A stretch of DNA of 23,789 bases from a virus, in UHGV virus genome UHGV-1460385; one strand, written 5' to 3'. Within the stretch, counting starts at the first letter, position 1. Each line of letters starts with the position of its first letter. Both the position numbers and the translations under genes were made by a program. Below are positions 576 through 8,389 of this stretch, one piece after another. The notes below the pieces were generated by a model, which was not told the DNA's origin, searched no databases, and saw only the letters and a program-made list of their open reading frames with translations.

Positions 576-3263
576 CTATTCCACAACATCATCTTCTATC
601 AATTCAGCCTTATTTAGTTGTTCCTTAAGCTTATTCCATGCAGAATCCTCAGGCATCTGTACTCGCACAGAAACGAATTGATTAGCAGGAATGTCGATCG
701 GGTCACCGTTCGAAACACCAGGGATGTCGTTACGTGCAAAAACGGGCGAGTTATCATGAGTGCGGTGAAACGTTTTCACCAACACAGATCCATCTTGGTT
801 AACAACATAATCCAGCCAGATGAGCGGCTGCTTGTTTCGGTCCTGCGGTATTTCAAATCCACCATCAATCCCCCCCCATGAAGCATCTGCATTCAGACCT
901 ACGCAACCCTCAATCAGATATTCACCCAATGCCAGCCGTGTGACGGTTACCCCATCTGATTCGCGATTTGTTTCACTACTACCGTCTGAGAAAATCTTCA
1001 CAACCGGAGAGGCTTTTTTGATGAAACCACTTGAATCGACGGTCGTGTTCAGCGACGACCATGCCTCAGCCCAGCCTGTGTTACCTGCGCGAATAGCATC
1101 GTCTGCGTAGCGGAAGAACAGTTTTGATGTTGTGGACATGAATATCTGCAACACACGGTTTTTTGCATATCCTGACTCCCATAATGCTCCGTTACCTGTT
1201 CCTTCTGGCTGCCAGTTTGTCACCCCACCTGCAGCTCCTATACTTACACCAGTAGACCAGTCTCCAGCAAATTCTGGAAGATTTAGTGAGTTAGGTGAGC
1301 GAATTGATACATCAACCAGACCAGGGGATCCGAGAATCGACATGCTGCGGGAGGACACCTTAGTAAAAGAGTTGTACCCGCCGTTTTTGGAAATCCTTCC
1401 TGTATAATTATTAGCCCTGTTAGTTCCATTAACTGTAATTTCCCAGGTATCGCCGTTGATGAAGTCGATCTGCAATAGGCAGAATGCTGGCAGCGTCATC
1501 TGTCCTGGCGCAGATGGCCCACCTTCAAACAGTGGCATATCCTGTTCAAGATATGTCACATATCTACCTGCATCTGTATTCCGCAAATAGTCACAAATAG
1601 CCTGTGCCGATGTAAATAGCGCAATACCATCAGCCGGGTTTACAGGGTGACGGCCAGCGTTAATCACCCTTCCGCGAGGGTTAAATAACTGTGATGAGGC
1701 ATTGGATAGCGGAGTCATGTCTACTGTTCCAGGTTCATTAGATGGACAGTTAGCGCGAATGATGTTTAAAGTCCTATAATTTGATCCGCCCCCATTGTCA
1801 TAGCGAATAGACTGTAGAAGATACAATTCCTCAGAGCCAGAAATATCACAAGACTGCACCCCCTCATTTTCAGTGGAGTAAACACTCTTCCCTGAATAAC
1901 TATCCCAGTATGTTTTGAAATCTGCAGGTGACAGCAGGTACTGACCTAATTCTGAACCATTAAGGCTGTACTCAATATAACCCTGCAACCCTGCGAAAGT
2001 ATTTCCAGATCCCGCCGTGGTAGATGCACCAATACCAGCAAATATCCGTTGAGAACCAAGAGCGACACCCTGCCGTTTTGGTTTACCGGCTCCGCGACCT
2101 CCAACATTTGCATCAACCGTAATAGTCCCCATTGGACTGTAAGATCCTTCTATAAGGCTGTTAATATCCAGTGTGTTAAAGATATTGGATACACCTGTCT
2201 CAACATCAAAAATTTTCGGCCAACCCATATCCGCATTTTCGTATATCAGGGTATTACCAAAGCCACTAAACTGATATCGCACTCCAAGGCGTGTTGATTC
2301 AGTGAAGTTTGTAATCTGCGTTTTATCAACCAGCGTACGCGGATCTTCGATAGGGTAAATTCTGATAGTGCGAGATGGGCTGTACGGCAGCAGGATGTAA
2401 CGCTGTCCTGCCACTCGGTAAACGTGGATGCCTTCTGGTGCACCAACGTTATTCGGAAAATGAAGACGTGTTACCAATGCTCCTGTTACCCAGTCATGCA
2501 CCGTAACCCATACCGATGCGGGGTCTAGCGTCTGCCAGCCGATGTATACCATTCCATCATTGCTGTCTATGTAAATCCCCTGAAATCCCATGGTCGTGTA
2601 ACCATACTGATCTTTAAGATCTGCGGTAATCTCATCGTCTATGATGCTGAATTCTAATTTCCAGTTCAGCGGCCTACGCGTACCACTGACATGCCTAGAA
2701 ATATGAGACAGGTAGCTTTTAACCCCGCCTGCGATAATGTATCTATGTTTGATCTCAGTAACAATTCCAGTTGCAACTGGAGTGCATTTATAGACGCCGC
2801 CGTTTATTCTAATAAAATTGGTTCCTGTTAGATTATCCCCAATGGCAACGTCTTTTCTACTATTCTTAAACGTCCCATTACCTAAGTCAGTAACAAGCAA
2901 TGCCCCTTCTACATATTTCAATGACTGATCAGGGTCATACTTCAGCACATTAGGAAAATAGAACTGCTGCGCACCATACGCATCATAAACAGCCATAGAG
3001 TGGCCTTGCACAGTTACGAACTTGGCAATCTGTCCGTTATATACCGGGTAACCAGCAGCGTTAATGATTATTGGTTGCGAAACAGGAACGTGAGAACCGT
3101 CTTCATTCTCCACATAGACCTGAATCTGGTTTTCTGGATTTACAGGATCAGTGTCAATTTTACCGATATAAATTTTGCCATTGGCTACGGCTTTAAAAGA
3201 ACGCGCCATAGTGAAGAGTTGCGAAGGCATCGATACGATCACATTGGCTGTAATGTCTCTCAT
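576..3263 (-). CDS. Tailspike / receptor-binding protein (895 aa): P22-type N-terminal head-binding domain fused to a large non-P22 C-terminal body
   Basis: Residues 1-110 ([40 protein letters not shown]...[12 protein letters not shown]...NVLKYDPDQ) closely match my recollection of the P22 gp9 head-binding domain. The remaining ~780 aa do not resemble the P22 endorhamnosidase body. Last gene of the late operon, after ant, as in P22. ATG at 3263 with GGAG 9 nt upstream; TAG stop at 576-578. Confidence 0.9.
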
Positions 3264-3385: not shown

Positions 3386-4315
3386 TTAAAGTTTAATTGA
3401 GTGGCACGCTCTATCACGTATCGCTGCGAATGAAGCTATCTCTTTAAGTGCCCAGCTTTGCTCAGCCATTAAATGGCGAAGTGCTTTTAGTTCAGCTCTT
3501 ACTGCTGAAACGTCATACCCCGCTTTTGTCAGAATATTGATTAGTTTATACGCCGGACTGCATTCAACGAGTGCGCTGCGGTCAAGAGCAACAGTATCAC
3601 CGCATTGCTGCCTGATAATGGCGTAAGGTGCATTTTCAGCAAACCATGAAATCGGGAAGTTAATATCCAGTTTTGGCGCTGGTAACTCTTCTTGTTTGCC
3701 AATGAACTCACCTTCAAGCGGAACGCGAGCAGCAAGTGACAGTGCTTCGGTAAACTGCTCCTCACTGATTTCTTTGTACGAACATCCAAAATGGGATTTC
3801 AGTGACGACCACATGGTGATCATCGCCTTAGCCTGTTTTTCTTTTGGCAGAGACTGACCGCGACTCATGACGAGTTGTTTAATGGCTTCCTGCTGTTCAG
3901 TGGTAATTTTACTCGGCAACGCCTTTTTAGCTTTGCGTGGGTTAACTACATGACCTTTAGTCCAGTACTCGTAGAGCACATCGTCACACTCTTCCTGATA
4001 CTGGATTACCTTGTCGCGGATTTCAGGGCGGACTTTGTTTGGACTGATGGTTTGCAGCCAGCCAGCAAGTTTGCGAAGTGCCAAACAAATAATCTCACGG
4101 CACTGTTCATCACCAGGAAGCTGCATTGTGATTTTCACAATGGAGGTTTTAAACCGTTGCTTTATTTTCGTAAACTGTGAAGCCCAATCCATACCCATAC
4201 CTTCAACGATAGGTTTCATTGGGGTGTACGGCTCACCGTTGTGATTGACGACATAAAGCTCTGCGCCGTGGAATGGTACATTGATAGTAGATACTGCTGT
4301 TGCTATACTTTTCAT
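3386..4315 (-). CDS. ant: Antirepressor Ant (P22_AR-type N- and C-terminal domains), 309 aa from ATG 4315
   Basis: Position immediately upstream of the tailspike and downstream of arc, as in P22 immI; size near P22 Ant (300 aa). N-terminal VPFHGAELYVVNHNGEPYTPMKPIVEGMGMDW...QLPGDEQ resembles the P22 antirepressor N-domain family as I recall it. The ORF-track start at 4381 is TTG; the first ATG (4315) has AGGAAA 7 nt upstream. Confidence 0.7.
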   Translation of the reverse strand: MKSIATAVSTINVPFHGAELYVVNHNGEPYTPMKPIVEGMGMDWASQFTKIKQRFKTSIVKITMQLPGDEQCREIICLALRKLAGWLQTISPNKVRPEIRDKVIQYQEECDDVLYEYWTKGHVVNPRKAKKALPSKITTEQQEAIKQLVMSRGQSLPKEKQAKAMITMWSSLKSHFGCSYKEISEEQFTEALSLAARVPLEGEFIGKQEELPAPKLDINFPISWFAENAPYAIIRQQCGDTVALDRSALVECSPAYKLINILTKAGYDVSAVRAELKALRHLMAEQSWALKEIASFAAIRDRACHSIKL

Positions 4316-4390
4316 GTCAATATTTCCTAAGACGATTTGTTGATACCGAAGCCCTGACTGTTCCAGCAGTTGGGGCTTCAACGTTTTTCC
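4316..4390 (+). ncRNA. sar: sar-type antisense RNA candidate (~73 nt) covering the ant ribosome-binding site
   Basis: Plus-strand promoter -35 TTGATA (4281-4286), 17-bp spacer, -10 TATACT (4304-4309) with TGc extension. Predicted start near 4316, directly opposite the ant start codon. Ends at a long hairpin (GAAGCCC..ACTG-ttccag-CAGT..GGGCTTC, 4348-4379) followed by ACGTTTTT. Matches the known P22 sar arrangement; transcript not demonstrated. Confidence 0.5.
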
Positions 4391-4889: not shown

Positions 4890-5144
4890 ATGTCCAGAGA
4901 AGACCCACAATTTAAGTTGCGCCTTCCAGCAGAGTTAAAAGCAAAGTTAGACCAAAGGGCAAAAATGAATGGTCGGTCTATCAATTCTGAACTAGTTCAG
5001 ATCGTACAGAAGGCGTTATCTGAACCATCACCGATTGCAGGCTATCGAGACGAAGCTGAACGCTTGGCTGATCAGCAAGCAGAGCAGTTCAAGACTGTTG
5101 TGTTTGAGACACTTAAAAAGATTTATGGCAAGGATGATAAATAA
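4890..5144 (+). CDS. mnt: Mnt repressor (Arc/MetJ-family ribbon-helix-helix), 84 aa
   Basis: MSREDPQFKLRLPAELKAKLDQRAKMNGRSINSELVQIVQKALSEPSPIAGYRDEAERLADQQ... is near-colinear with the P22 Mnt sequence as I recall it (ARDDPHFNFRMPMEVREKLKFRAEANGRSMNSELLQIVQDALSKPSPVTGYRNDAERLADEQ...). Divergent from arc-ant across an operator. Confidence 0.85.
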   Translation: MSREDPQFKLRLPAELKAKLDQRAKMNGRSINSELVQIVQKALSEPSPIAGYRDEAERLADQQAEQFKTVVFETLKKIYGKDDK

Positions 5145-5680
5145 TGCTGCACACAATTCATTTCTTATGCCCCGTTAACACCGCCACTGTTGGGCAACTT
5201 CAGAACCACTGTCTCACCGCATTATCTCAAGGCGCAACTGAATTAAATATCCATATATCAAGTCAGGGAGGGGAAACAGCCGCTGGCTTTACTGCGTATA
5301 ACTTTCTTAAGTCACTCCCTGTTACCGTTAGAACTCACAACATAAGCAATGTTGAATCCATAGCTAATATCGTTTTCCTGGCTGGCTCAGAACGTTTCGC
5401 AAACCCATTATCAAGATTCCTGTTACATCCTCTATTATGGTGCTTTGCCTCCCCAGCCGCCGACCATGCCAGATTGAGAGAGTACGGGAAATGCCTCGAT
5501 AACGATCTTGATCGCTTCGTTGAGACGTTCAATATCGACATCGGAACCCATATTAGGTGGGCATCCCTGATAGCAGACTCGACCATTTTGGATGCTAACA
5601 AGGCTCTTGAGCATGGCATAATTAATTCCATAAAAACTGCAAGGCTGGTATCCAATCAGGCAAACTGGTGGGTTGTTTGA
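5144..5680 (+). CDS. Truncated ClpP-family (S14-like) serine protease, 178 aa, translationally coupled to mnt
   Basis: Start ATG overlaps the mnt TAA (TAATG). By-eye alignment to E. coli ClpP: NIHISSQGGETAAG vs YINSPGGVITAG; SNVESIANIVFLAG vs GQAASMGAFLLTAG (Ser); RFLLHPL vs RVMIHQPL (His); ILDANKALEHGII vs FLSAPEAVEYGLV with an upstream Asp. Ser-His-Asp spacing matches. The ~25 N-terminal residues of ClpP are absent. Confidence 0.75.
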   Translation: MLHTIHFLCPVNTATVGQLQNHCLTALSQGATELNIHISSQGGETAAGFTAYNFLKSLPVTVRTHNISNVESIANIVFLAGSERFANPLSRFLLHPLLWCFASPAADHARLREYGKCLDNDLDRFVETFNIDIGTHIRWASLIADSTILDANKALEHGIINSIKTARLVSNQANWWVV

Positions 5681-5736: not shown

Positions 5737-5958
5737 TTAGTTATCAAAAAGTCCGTACGTTTCTTCTTCTTCAGGTGTAAGGGGAAGAATCTCTACTCTA
5801 TCTATAGATACCTTTTCAATGTACCCATGAGGTCTACTTAAAATTAAAGCTCTCTCATGCCACAGAACTCCAAGAATGTGATACCTCCCAGCATCGCCTT
5901 TTACCCTGGCTCTTCCTTTGATTCTTGGCGGCATAATGCCATATTTTTTCTTTGCCAT
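5737..5958 (-). CDS. Hypothetical 73-aa protein, last gene of the minus-strand antirepressor operon
   Basis: ATG at 5958 overlaps the upstream TAA (TAATG); basic N-terminus, acidic C-terminus; followed by the terminator at 5705-5730. No family recognised. Confidence 0.45.
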   Translation of the reverse strand: MAKKKYGIMPPRIKGRARVKGDAGRYHILGVLWHERALILSRPHGYIEKVSIDRVEILPLTPEEEETYGLFDN

Positions 5959-6686
5959 TATGCAACATTACTCCCATGAATCAGGTGTTGTAGAGCTTTA
6001 ACACCTTCCGCATTGTAGCGGAATGCTTCCACCTGTTTGCTGGAATGTGCAGATTTATCCAGGAAGAACTTCCCGTACTGCTCAGTTTTGAGGTTGTTTG
6101 CGTTAGCAATGCGACCAATCTTGTTGGCCGTTACTCCAAGCTGCTCTGCAACCTCCCCTGCTGAGTAGTAATGCTCTTCTATTGCTGGAAGAGGTATTGC
6201 ATTAAAACCAACGATCGGGTTGATTATGCTTGCTGCCGCAGTCTGCTTTGCTTCCGGCGCAAGATTTGGCATCAAATCGAACAGATTGGTAACAGCTTCA
6301 ACCGTCATTTTCAATGTTCGCGCCTGGCGATACTCAACAAGTCCACTCGACGATTTACCGCTTTTAATGTGCGCTTCTTGCATACTTTCAAGTTGGTCTA
6401 CAAGTGAGCGGCGAACAGCTTTAGATTCACGAGCAGCCACTCGAAGGGCTTGCTTAATTGACATAACAACTTTTTCAGAAGTTGTCTTGTTTGATTTTTG
6501 AACTACGAAAATTTCGTAGTGCTCACCTTCAAGTTCATCCTTAATGCGTGCAATAAAGTCGTTATTTCGGACTTCTTTTTCCCCGCACTGTCTACGAGCA
6601 TGATTGACCATCTCTAACAGGTACTGGCTATCAATGGTTTTATCCGTGACAACGGATCCGATGTTTGCTACATTCTTAAAAGTCAT
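5958..6686 (-). CDS. Rha-like N-domain plus KilA-C-like C-domain protein (antirepressor-family regulator), 242 aa from ATG 6686
   Basis: N-terminal TIDSQYLLEMVNHARRQCGEKEVRNNDFIARIKDEL...HYEIFVVQKS resembles the Rha family. C-terminal YSAGEVAEQLGVTANKIGRIANANNLKTEQYGKFFLDKS resembles KilA-C-type antirepressor C-domains. AAGGA 7 nt upstream of ATG 6686; the track start at 6737 is GTG and would run through a terminator hairpin. Confidence 0.65.
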   Translation of the reverse strand: MTFKNVANIGSVVTDKTIDSQYLLEMVNHARRQCGEKEVRNNDFIARIKDELEGEHYEIFVVQKSNKTTSEKVVMSIKQALRVAARESKAVRRSLVDQLESMQEAHIKSGKSSSGLVEYRQARTLKMTVEAVTNLFDLMPNLAPEAKQTAAASIINPIVGFNAIPLPAIEEHYYSAGEVAEQLGVTANKIGRIANANNLKTEQYGKFFLDKSAHSSKQVEAFRYNAEGVKALQHLIHGSNVA

Positions 6687-6724
6687 TAGGCATTCCTTAT
6701 GTGGTAGTAAGGGTGTGACATAGG

Positions 6725-6755
6725 CCGCCAGCAGCACACTGGCGGTTTTCTTTTT
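6725..6755 (+). terminator. Orphan plus-strand intrinsic terminator in the Bro-N / Rha-like intercistronic gap
   Basis: CCGCCAG-cagcaca-CTGGCGG followed by TTTTCTTTTT. Canonical geometry. There is no annotated plus-strand gene upstream, so it would terminate an antisense transcript. Confidence 0.6.
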
Positions 6756-6774: not shown

Positions 6775-7401
6775 TCAATGAATCCATTCCTCGCCGCGAA
6801 GTTTTGCCAGCATTGGCTGAGCGTTCTTTACGACAAAATTGTTGGTATCAAGATTCTTCATTTCACGAAGAAGTGATTTCTTGGTTTCTTCTGACATGTA
6901 GCGAGTCTCATATGCAATATCGTAAATCCTTCCTGAAAGCTCAGAACCAATTTGCTTCATTCCTGGGTAGATGTGTTTGCACATTTGTTGACTCTTCTCC
7001 ATCCACAATTGTAAGTAGCAGAGATTAACCAGTTCTTCGTCAGTAAACTGTTTTGCAATCGGTGAGCATTCTGCCTGCCGATCCAAAATATCCAGCACCC
7101 AGCGGCGGAACTCTTTGGCTACCGGAGTGCGAGCAAACATCGCGATTAGGTGGGCACCGCGTAGTGAGAAAACTCGCACTTTTTTGCGATAATTTCCTGA
7201 GGTACTCACTTCGAGTACCTGAGTCATTCCGGCGCTAAACTCATCGCTATACTTGTTATAAATCATTGTTACTGCACGACTATTTGCGTATTTAAGTGCA
7301 GATGCAATATTAGATGATGTAAACCAAACACCATGCATATCACGGGTGGGCACCAACTCAACTCCGTGGAAGTTGTAATCTGATTTTGCTACAATATTCA
7401 T
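6775..7401 (-). CDS. Bro-N domain antirepressor-like protein, 208 aa from ATG 7401
   Basis: NFHGVELVPTRDMHGVWFTSSNIASALKYANSRAVTMIYNKY...KKVRVFSLRGAHLIAMFARTPVAKEFRRWVLDIL fits the Bro-N prophage antirepressor pattern. AGGAAA 6 nt upstream of ATG 7401; the track start at 7506 is TTG. Confidence 0.8.
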   Translation of the reverse strand: MNIVAKSDYNFHGVELVPTRDMHGVWFTSSNIASALKYANSRAVTMIYNKYSDEFSAGMTQVLEVSTSGNYRKKVRVFSLRGAHLIAMFARTPVAKEFRRWVLDILDRQAECSPIAKQFTDEELVNLCYLQLWMEKSQQMCKHIYPGMKQIGSELSGRIYDIAYETRYMSEETKKSLLREMKNLDTNNFVVKNAQPMLAKLRGEEWIH

Positions 7402-7476
7402 GTTAGTTTCCTTGCATACGGTTACTGACATAGAGGCCCGGTTTGTGTTCGCGCACTGCCGGGCTTCACTATTTTT
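7402..7476 (+). ncRNA. Second sar-like antisense RNA candidate, opposite the Bro-N gene start
   Basis: Extended -10 TGcTACAAT at 7387-7395 on the plus strand, ending 3 nt before the complement of the Bro-N ATG (same geometry as at ant). Hairpin GCCCGG..CCGGGC (7436-7464) followed by U-rich TTCACTATTTTTATT. Weak -35, and the U-tract is interrupted. Confidence 0.35.
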
Positions 7477-7648
7477 ATTGGATGACAACATCGCCCTTTG
7501 CCTCAAGTTTCATCAATAACTCCATTCGATAAGCTATCTCTGCCTGAATTGACCTATGGCATCTTTTTGCTGATTCGCGGATATGTGAATCAACCTTTTC
7601 TGTAAAACGAACCTGACGCGGCTTGATGGAAGATATCTTTTCAGTCAT
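7475..7648 (-). CDS. Arc-like ribbon-helix-helix regulator, 57 aa; absent from the ORF track
   Basis: Translation by hand: MTEKISSIKPRQVRFTEKVDSHIRESAKRCHRSIQAEIAYRMELLMKLEAKGDVVIQ. Pattern of beta-strand (RQVRFTEKV) then two helices with RS-I-EI motif is typical of Arc/CopG. GGAG 6 nt upstream of ATG 7648; TAA at 7475-7477. Confidence 0.7.
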   Translation of the reverse strand: MTEKISSIKPRQVRFTEKVDSHIRESAKRCHRSIQAEIAYRMELLMKLEAKGDVVIQ

Positions 7649-7747: not shown

Positions 7748-8389
7748 ATGAATTTTGACGATCAATTCCCATCAAGAGTATCTCTGGCAAGACAGTCCAG
7801 GGGTATGACGCAGGCGCAGTTGTCAAAATTAGCTGGTGTTGTTCAACGTCAAATAGCTGCATACGAGGGTGGTGAGGCTAAACCACGGCTTCGGGTATTG
7901 CAGGCATTAGCCAACGCATTAGGTACTACAGCTGAGTGGTTAGCTCTAGGTGAAGGTCAGGGTCCGGGAACAAAAAACGTCATGCCTGACGTTCTGGTAA
8001 AGCAAATACCAATCCTCAAACTAGATGAAGTTATGCATTACCTAAACACAGGTGAACATTCATCGTCTAGATTTCATCCGGCAATATACAATGTTGGTGA
8101 CTCTGCATTTGCATTGACTATTGAAGGTGAAGCTATGACTACAAGTTCAGGTATTAGCTTTCCCAGAGGATCGGTTGTCACGTTCAGCCCTCTAGTAAAA
8201 GCTAAAAGCAAAGATTATGTAATAGCATCATTGGATAAAGAGCAAATATTGAGCTTCAAACAGGTTTACATTGGTGAAATAGAGACAAACCTAGTATCCC
8301 TAAACCCAATGTATCCTAATATTCTTGTTAGAAATGAAGATGTTAGTATTTTGGCAACCGCAGTTTACCTTGAAATCCCGTTGCTTTGA
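7748..8389 (+). CDS. Lambda-CI/LexA-fold repressor (HTH plus S24-like C-domain) with Ala at the nucleophile position
   Basis: N-terminal Cro/C1-type HTH (MTQAQLSKLAGVVQRQIAAYEGGEAKP). C-domain aligns with lambda CI: FALTIEGEAM vs FWLDVQGDSM (Ser to Ala, codon GCT), LSFKQV vs ATFKKL (Lys kept), LNPMYPNI vs LNPQYPMI. Confidence 0.85.
   Translation: MNFDDQFPSRVSLARQSRGMTQAQLSKLAGVVQRQIAAYEGGEAKPRLRVLQALANALGTTAEWLALGEGQGPGTKNVMPDVLVKQIPILKLDEVMHYLNTGEHSSSRFHPAIYNVGDSAFALTIEGEAMTTSSGISFPRGSVVTFSPLVKAKSKDYVIASLDKEQILSFKQVYIGEIETNLVSLNPMYPNILVRNEDVSILATAVYLEIPLL

Follow-up and report, generated by a model that had tools for sequence, protein, structure and literature searches.

Exchange of the tailspike is the main route by which P22-like phages change hosts, and the bodies known on these tailspikes are receptor-cutting proteins, namely, beta-helices and the endosialidase of CUS-3. 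In endosialidases of the CUS-3 and K1F type, the sialidase propeller has six blades and a nested barrel, and an S74 chaperone is cleaved off. The fold of the "platform" in the receptor-binding proteins (RBPs) of staphylococcal phages is already well described (PMC4901313; PMC6795507). Here, we analyze the tailspike gene of UHGV virus genome UHGV-1460385, a stretch of 23,789 nucleotides (nt) that we call the window and whose positions are used below. In the list of open reading frames (ORFs), this gene occupies positions 576 to 3263 on the minus strand, with an ATG start and 895 amino acids (aa) before the stop codon. An earlier reading made from the DNA letters alone (the sequence-only reading) had given exactly these ends without naming the strand.

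That reading took the gene for a modular tailspike in which a conserved head-binding domain is joined to an unrelated receptor-binding body. The idea of a domain swap is right, and the swap reaches further than was proposed. Structure prediction, fold search, and profile comparison identify the body as a five-bladed propeller with homology to the staphylococcal RBP platform, and the tailspike consists of three exchangeable modules: the head-binding domain, the propeller body, and the C-terminal domain Phage_tail_C_2 (PF25670). This architecture is well supported; the working site and the ligand are inferred.

A P22-type head-binding domain is joined to an unrelated body

Residues 1 to 113 (2925 to 3263, minus strand) make up a head-binding domain of the P22 type, by which the trimer is attached at the gp4/gp10 tail hub. 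They cover all 113 profile positions of the Pfam family Head_binding (PF09008; E = 1.2e-66), and a phmmer search of the PDB aligned residues 1 to 114 without gaps to P22 gp9 (8tvr_A, residues 1 to 114; E = 9e-52) and to Sf6 gp14 (7sg7_A). Over these 114 gapless positions, identity is 74.6% to P22 gp9 and 90.4% to Sf6 gp14, which bears out the near colinearity of the first ~110 residues with the P22 domain noted from the sequence alone. At the DNA level, likeness to P22-like phages is limited to nt 1 to 340 of the gene (aa 1 to 113), where it reaches 97.4% with CUS-3, 92% with HK620, and 88% with Sf6; it ends at nt 340, directly after the YDPDQ motif.

The extreme N terminus shows some further variation. 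P0001, which represents a cluster of 182 member sequences, departs from the window protein only there (window 3165 to 3263, aa 1 to 33), with MPEQLYNVVVSQPSQLFTLARSFKAN in one of the pair, and in three genomes, including that of strain KE40, the match starts only at nt 34 of the gene. Together, these observations indicate a small extra mosaic patch within the head-binding domain.

Nothing past residue 114 resembles the P22 endorhamnosidase. In the phmmer search of the PDB, residues 115 to 895 had no match to the tailspike bodies of P22, Sf6, or HK620, even at E ≤ 1, and the ~620 residues between PF09008 and PF25670 matched nothing in Pfam, NCBIfam, or the PDB sequences. At 895 aa, the protein exceeds P22 gp9 (667 aa) by 228 aa, in agreement with the surplus of ~230 aa estimated previously. 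Its description as rich in Gly, Asn, Ser, and Thr, with beta-strand-like periodicity, also holds, since Gly makes up 11.7%, Ser 8.6%, Thr 8.0%, and Asn 6.9% of aa 115 to 740 and the model of this region is almost entirely beta. The body of ~780 aa is thus unrelated to that of P22, as had been claimed, but it is not the single unit that had been assumed: it comprises a linker, the propeller, a beta-rich region, and the separate PF25670 domain. GC composition gave no foreign-DNA signal at the boundaries of the tailspike modules.

The body is a five-bladed propeller of the staphylococcal type

We modeled aa 115 to 740 with AlphaFold2 (AF2) from a 15-sequence alignment that included distant relatives. 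The model has a mean predicted local distance difference test (pLDDT) score of 71.9, rising to ~90 over aa 204 to 345; it is all beta and is organized in blades of four antiparallel strands. The propeller spans aa ~201 to 520 (~200 to 516; window 1704 to 2663, minus strand) and is the predicted receptor-binding, or catalytic, domain. In a fold search with this model, the nearest structures were phage RBPs, followed by the five-bladed propellers YjiK (score, 17.1), bacterial glutaminyl cyclases (14.7 to 16.4), an N-acetylgalactosamine (GalNAc) deacetylase (14.3), and GH43 enzymes (12 to 14); no beta-helix tailspike was found in the top 60 matches. Foldseek against BFVD gave the tail fiber of Staphylococcus phage vB_SscM-1 as the best match (E = 1.9e-23), and the fiber of an E. 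coli podophage was also present (E = 2e-10).

The sequence-only reading had suggested looking for a beta-helix by structure prediction. The model and the fold search instead give a five-bladed beta-propeller of the phi11 Gp45 type, so that the right-handed parallel beta-helix typical of P22-like tailspike bodies is missing and the platform typical of Gp45-type RBPs is present. The N-terminal triple coiled-coil stem of the latter is missing as well: the N terminus is PF09008, and no stem similarity was found. Two other propeller classes do not fit either, as the protein has neither the six-bladed sialidase propeller and C-terminal S74 chaperone of endosialidases nor the GH43/GH32 family signature with its catalytic Asp/Glu on the inner strands.

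Profile comparison connects the family with staphylococcal phages by sequence too. When the family alignment was compared by hhalign with an RBP of Staphylococcus phage HHU-22, the two aligned over 393 columns (probability, 99.95%; E = 1.5e-38). The HHU-22 gene (locus L010, 2575 to 4587) is flanked by SGNH hydrolase and BppU genes, and the N-terminal stem of its product matches phi11 Gp45, 80alpha gp61, and NF5 Gp17. The fiber of coliphage vB_Eco_ZCEC02 aligned with the family over 395 columns (E = 2.7e-31), and a tblastn search with the distant relative P0013 retrieved 29 Staphylococcus phage records (best E = 1e-18) along with T7-like and other coliphages. Judged by these profiles, the likeness of the propeller to staphylococcal phage RBPs is one of homology and not only of fold.

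Among staphylococcal RBPs with similar Gp45-like stems, the propeller comes in two variants of different sequence. A clear relation to the enterobacterial family was seen for the HHU-22 type (E = 1.5e-38, as above), and none was detectable by sequence for the phi11 type.

The annotation of some relatives suggested a relationship with endosialidases, which we rejected because the label traces only to the S74 chaperone. Several cultured coliphage fibers are labeled "endo-N-acetylneuraminidase" and have no endosialidase domain; they consist of a T7-type N terminus, PF18668, the propeller, and S74, and the label appears to stem from the chaperone alone.

Regions flanking the propeller

The propeller is connected to the head-binding domain by a linker or neck, a small beta module at aa 114 to 200 (2664 to 2924, minus strand), which is kept in six close relatives and also gave a separate match in the relatives P0011 and P0012. 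In the model, its pLDDT is 66 to 80 at body residues 30 to 73 and below 50 at residues 1 to 22 and 75 to 83. On the other side of the propeller, a beta-rich region (aa 521 to 738; 1050 to 1703, minus strand) forms two apparent subdomains with a pLDDT of 50 to 80 and a disordered stretch at body residues 523 to 545. This region is conserved in the close relatives and in P0008, P0009, and P0014. It occupies the position of the "tower" in Gp45 and in the P68 fiber; we detected no internal repeat in it and, by BLASTP, no sequence similarity to the Gp45 tower.

The C-terminal segment, which the sequence-only reading had suggested checking for a chaperone-like character, is not of the S74 type. It is PF25670 (aa 739 to 872; 648 to 1049, minus strand; E = 2.1e-59, 133 of 133 profile positions), a beta-sandwich and a widespread end domain that is common on enterobacterial tail fibers; we collected 329 homologs. 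At the same position, the distant relatives have S74 or nothing. A literature search on PF25670 or Phage_tail_C_2 returned nothing, and a PDB match to SU10 gp12 was discarded as a guide to this domain because only residues 1 to 90 of gp12 are built. The protein ends in an acidic tail (aa 873 to 895; 579 to 647, minus strand), modeled as a helix at model residues 176 to 194 with low confidence at the very end; its sequence is variable among relatives.

Fibers usually contact their receptors through a distal C-terminal domain, and PF25670 could be the true receptor tip, recognizing an outer membrane protein or the lipopolysaccharide (LPS) core, with the propeller serving as a spacer or as a lectin for reversible first contact. 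The domain ends hundreds of enterobacterial tail-fiber proteins, among them the SU10 gp12 fiber protein, and three of the five lysogens described below may be rough or semirough, which would expose the core and outer membrane proteins. We nevertheless find this explanation distinctly unlikely. The domain keeps 60 to 86% identity across Enterobacter, Citrobacter, Salmonella, and E. coli, which is unusual for a specificity determinant, and in SU10 it lies on the proximal rather than the distal fiber protein (PMC9509320). Moreover, P0008 and P0009 stop straight after the body and other relatives have the S74 chaperone there; therefore, the body works without PF25670.

Conserved residues mark a predicted working site in the propeller

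Column conservation, scored for the window protein and its distant relatives together with HHU-22, ZCEC02, and Gp45, is highest at Q228, D233, W252, E277-G278, Q331, K396, Q398, E465-N466-E467-G468, and D515. The first strand of a propeller blade is normally the innermost and lines the central funnel. According to the strand map of the model, blades 1 to 5 each have a conserved motif at their first strand or immediately ahead of it (Q228, E277, Q331, K396/Q398, and E465/E467, respectively), and the working site is most likely a central crevice on one face of the predicted propeller.

In phi11 Gp45, a pocket for N-acetylglucosamine (GlcNAc) has been modeled at the propeller center, lined by Met164, Gln165, Thr211, Met329, and Gln330 (PMC4901313). 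MAFFT places these residues on F227, Q228, E277, R397, and Q398 of the window protein, at ~10% identity, so this mapping of the Gp45 pocket is suggestive only.

The family alignment (A2) shows no variation at four carboxylates, E277, E465, E467, and D515, which occur in 11 of 12 sequences once phi11 Gp45, HHU-22, and ZCEC02 are added; the family, including HHU-22, keeps them, and Gp45 is the one without them. Whether their role is catalytic, in a hydrolase or esterase, or lies in holding a metal ion or the sugar seems to us about evenly balanced. The glycan depolymerase or deacetylase activity proposed previously gained no direct support, as no enzyme family in Pfam, NCBIfam, or the PDB sequences matched the body and no enzymatic activity has been demonstrated for Gp45, its closest solved relative (PMC4901313).

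The body is rare and has moved between anchors

Even in very large collections, few copies of the body were found. A word-indexed search of 5.8 billion proteins recovered six clusters at 67 to 100% identity over the middle body region, and an exhaustive HMMER search of 1.84 billion representatives found 12 proteins with the propeller body at E ≤ 1e-3. The same word-indexed search with the distant-relative alignment A2 returned only close relatives already found. In 185,579 species-representative genomes, a locus search with alignment A1 added a single locus, in Kluyvera intermedia. By tblastn, the window body had no match in 50,697 phage genomes, and all phage matches came from the distant relatives P0013 and P0008. 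Among complete E. coli genomes, 11 of 5,426 carry the tailspike gene, with an intact ORF and 99.0 to 99.7% DNA identity.

These few copies are attached to different anchors. Three E. coli genomes share only nt 523/544 to 2661 of the gene (99.4 to 99.6% identity) behind a different N terminus, which places a second recombination junction in the linker, at ~aa 175 to 182. This brings the number of E. coli genomes with the body to 14. In an E. coli prophage, the same cassette of body and C-terminal domain stands behind an epsilon15-type tailspike N terminus (166 aa, 73% identical to epsilon15), and this chimeric gene lies just upstream of holin and GH19 genes. The body also occurs behind TSP1/gp66-type N domains (PF18668), and more distant propellers are found on T7-type, tail-collar, and staphylococcal coiled-coil anchors. 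Relatives at 67 to 74% identity keep the same conserved motifs. The proposed domain swap is therefore well founded: a body unrelated to that of P22 is joined right after YDPDQ, and the same cassette sits on epsilon15-type and TSP1/gp66-type anchors.

The tailspike closes a complete prophage

The tailspike ORF is the final gene of a complete P22-like prophage of E. coli. Upstream lies a P22-like late module with genes for gp3, the small and large terminase subunits, portal, scaffold, coat, gp4, gp10, DUF2824/gp14, gp7, and gp20, together with an ORF at the position of gp16 and an immI-like region that includes Arc/Mnt and antirepressor genes. As in P22-like phages, the tailspike gene stands at the distal end of the virion assembly module, with the host flank directly after it. 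This flank (1 to 522, no strand assigned) is chromosomal DNA of the ybhB side and matches E. coli genomes at ybhB with or without a prophage; positions 1 to 600 are 100% identical in KE40 and OZ546993. The prophage thus ends between ~523 and 575, ~50 bp past the tailspike stop codon, and therefore no gene separates the tailspike from host DNA. Inspection of the lysogen loci likewise revealed no serotype conversion genes of the gtr or oac type in that interval. The complete ORF (576 to 3263, minus strand) is annotated in E. coli as "phage head-binding domain-containing protein," and its full-length match in PHROG (20129) has no assigned function.

The prophage adjoins intS and a tRNA-Arg gene in strain TO6 and ybhB in KE40, OZ546993, SCU-109, and ECamp083; therefore, at least two integration sites are in use, which points to repeated, independent lysogenization. 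Urinary and bloodstream isolates are among the lysogens. In E. coli B1.H1.18 and B1.H1.1, both from hospital wastewater, the whole phage has been deposited as a 39.9-kb circular "plasmid" (NZ_CP146561.1 and NZ_CP146567.1; locus L003). Such a record points to either spontaneous induction or maintenance as an episome.

The body is very rare and no cultured phage carries it, as would be expected if the chimeric gene were an inert remnant in a decaying prophage, without present function. We regard this as highly improbable, given an intact ORF of 895 codons that is 99.0 to 99.7% identical in 11 genomes and at least two integration sites, a surrounding virion gene module that is complete, whole-phage circular molecules assembled from two strains, and conserved motifs retained in relatives at 67 to 74% identity.

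The immI-like region contains two distinct antirepressor-like genes (3386 to 4381 and 6775 to 7506, both on the minus strand), one with P22_AR_N and the other with Bro-N and P22_AR_C, and between them a 259-aa ORF (5958 to 6737) without a family match. A 178-aa ClpP-related ORF (5144 to 5680, plus strand) begins where an Arc/Mnt-type repressor gene (4890 to 5144, plus strand) has its stop codon. It matches Pfam CLP_protease (E = 2.2e-11) and the NCBIfam model "head maturation protease, ClpP-related" (E = 5e-13, far below the model cutoff), and a ClpP-like protease in this region is an odd location for a P22-like phage. Between the ejection-protein and antirepressor genes, on the strand opposite to the late operon, lies the gene for a self-cleaving CI/LexA-like repressor with HTH_3 and Peptidase_S24 domains (7748 to 8389, plus strand).

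Lysogens of several O-genotypes carry nearly identical tailspikes

To establish host O types, we read the O-antigen loci individually in five lysogens whose tailspike genes are at least 99% identical; this reading of the rfb region in each lysogen replaced a query with the O16 cluster, the output of which was dominated by K-12 laboratory strains. TO6 has an intact O16 cluster, WP7-S17-ESBL-01 an O25 cluster, and KE40 an O15 cluster, and SCU-109 and MS14384 share one common cluster, which has been typed as OgN12 (PMC10024524). Four O-genotypes, together with the lack of conversion genes, argue against a single O-antigen receptor, which is unlikely. The switch of O-antigen specificity that the sequence-only reading had implied is accordingly doubtful. 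RBP subtypes that span serogroups have been given the same interpretation elsewhere (PMC10408124).

We also observed possible defects in some of these loci. In WP7-S17-ESBL-01 (O25), the ORF in the place of wzy is frameshifted (locus L006, 10067 to 11129). The cluster common to SCU-109 and MS14384 carries different lesions in the two strains, namely, insertion sequence (IS) remnants and a 318-nt glycosyltransferase fragment in the former (L008, 31812 to 33289) and a split EpsG-family (EpsG/wzy-like) gene in the latter (L012, 6413 to 9757). Such lesions may point to a receptor located below the O-antigen; coincidence or assembly error is another possible explanation.

Proposed mechanism and its alternatives

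Taking the evidence together, we consider it probable that the gene encodes a P22-like podophage tailspike whose propeller binds a widely shared glycan. In this temperate, P22-like podophage of E. coli, the product serves as the receptor-binding tailspike. Its head-binding domain (aa 1 to 113) plugs the trimer into the tail hub, presumably with six trimers per virion by analogy with P22 and Sf6. Past the short linker, each subunit bears the five-bladed propeller and then the beta-rich region, and the PF25670 beta-sandwich at the C-terminal end could stabilize the trimer or serve as a second adhesin. Receptor recognition would take place in the central pocket of the propeller. Because the lysogens with nearly identical genes span at least four O-genotypes and no serotype conversion genes lie alongside, the ligand may be a surface saccharide common to many E. 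coli strains and not one O-antigen type. A more specific version, which we put forward only tentatively, is that of a serogroup-independent receptor module that binds, and perhaps hydrolyzes, a common E. coli saccharide through a central pocket sharing ancestry with the staphylococcal phage platforms that bind wall teichoic acid GlcNAc; candidate ligands would be, for example, the GlcNAc-containing base of O units, enterobacterial common antigen, or the LPS core.

Several points weigh against the explanation that we favor. The alignment behind the model is shallow, with 15 sequences, and about one-third of the residues have a pLDDT below 70. A direct hhalign comparison of the family with phi11 Gp45 itself was not significant (probability, 0.1%), and the family profile had no match among PDB sequences; therefore, Gp45 is linked to the family by its fold and, in sequence, by way of the HHU-22 RBP. 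The Gp45 pocket for GlcNAc was only modeled, and soaking experiments failed (PMC4901313). Its mapping onto the window protein depends, residue by residue, on the MAFFT alignment at ~10% identity, and a grouping of the conserved residues around one cavity is predicted from the strand map. Carriage of a prophage does not prove the host's present O-antigen to be permissive; recombination occurs at O-antigen loci, and in three of the five lysogens the cluster may have inactivating lesions. Finally, to our knowledge, every characterized P22-like tailspike (P22, Sf6, HK620, CUS-3, and epsilon34) is an enzyme that cuts or modifies its receptor glycan, which raises the prior for an enzyme here.

This precedent and the conservation of the four carboxylates (invariant in A2; 11 of 12 in the extended set) favor the view taken in the sequence-only reading, i.e., that the body is an O-antigen-specific depolymerase or deacetylase and that its exchange directs the phage to one serogroup. 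We judge this unlikely. Blades 1 to 5 carry Q, E, Q, K/Q, and E/E, which differs from the GH43/GH32 pattern. No enzyme family gave a sequence match in the databases searched, genes at least 99% identical occur across O16, O25, O15, and OgN12 lysogens, there are no serotype conversion genes beside the tailspike, and the nearest structures are phage RBPs without demonstrated activity (PMC4901313).

A staphylococcal-type propeller on P22- and epsilon15-type anchors widens the range of receptor-binding folds known for such phages and links RBPs of Gram-positive and Gram-negative phages by homology. The labels "endo-N-acetylneuraminidase" and "head-binding domain-containing protein" are uninformative about the receptor-binding part of these proteins. 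The module is a candidate for serogroup-independent adsorption to clinical E. coli, which is relevant to engineering the host range of phages or tailocins. If it is indeed serogroup independent, this would be the first P22-like tailspike not bound to one polysaccharide type, and one RBP platform family would serve both Gram-positive and Gram-negative envelopes, possibly including a new class of propeller-fold phage enzymes.

Comparison with known systems

A search of the accessible literature library returned no description of the five-bladed type on an enterobacterial phage, and the protein is best placed by comparison with several systems, each of which shares part of its architecture. With P22 gp9, Sf6 gp14, and the HK620 tailspike, it has in common the N-terminal anchor (75 to 90% identity, gapless, with the boundary at YDPDQ) and the gene position, so a trimeric tailspike with six copies per tail is expected. 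In contrast to these three, it has a propeller and extra domains rather than a right-handed parallel beta-helix, and it matches neither the endorhamnosidase nor the endo-N-acetylglucosaminidase bodies in sequence or fold. That a P22 head-binding domain can carry a body with a propeller and no beta-helix has a precedent in CUS-3; the propeller of its endosialidase, like that of K1F, is six-bladed.

The staphylococcal proteins phi11 Gp45, 80alpha gp61, and the P68 fiber, with their succession of stem, platform, and tower, likewise have a beta-rich region past the propeller. In the MAFFT alignment (~10% identity), two glutamines of the Gp45 pocket fall on conserved ones of the window protein, Q165 on Q228 and Q330 on Q398. 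Unlike Gp45, the window protein is anchored by a P22 head-binding domain instead of a coiled-coil stem and carries PF25670 as an additional end domain. The host is Gram negative, and therefore wall teichoic acid cannot be its ligand, unlike that of staphylococcal RBPs.

Closer to the present host, the Kayfunavirus-like coliphage vB_Eco_ZCEC02 (locus L009, 1736 to 4591) has a homologous propeller with ~21 to 23% identity and the same EG, KRQ, and IENEG motifs. This propeller is combined with a T7-type N terminus plus PF18668 and a C-terminal S74, versus PF09008 and PF25670 here. The epsilon15-type chimeras, finally, have the same body followed by PF25670 (P0002, 74% protein identity; XJ55 [WP_094284520], 99.5% DNA identity from nt 523), and in them the cassette is mounted on the tail of a different podophage, with 166 N-terminal aa that are 73% identical to the epsilon15 anchor.

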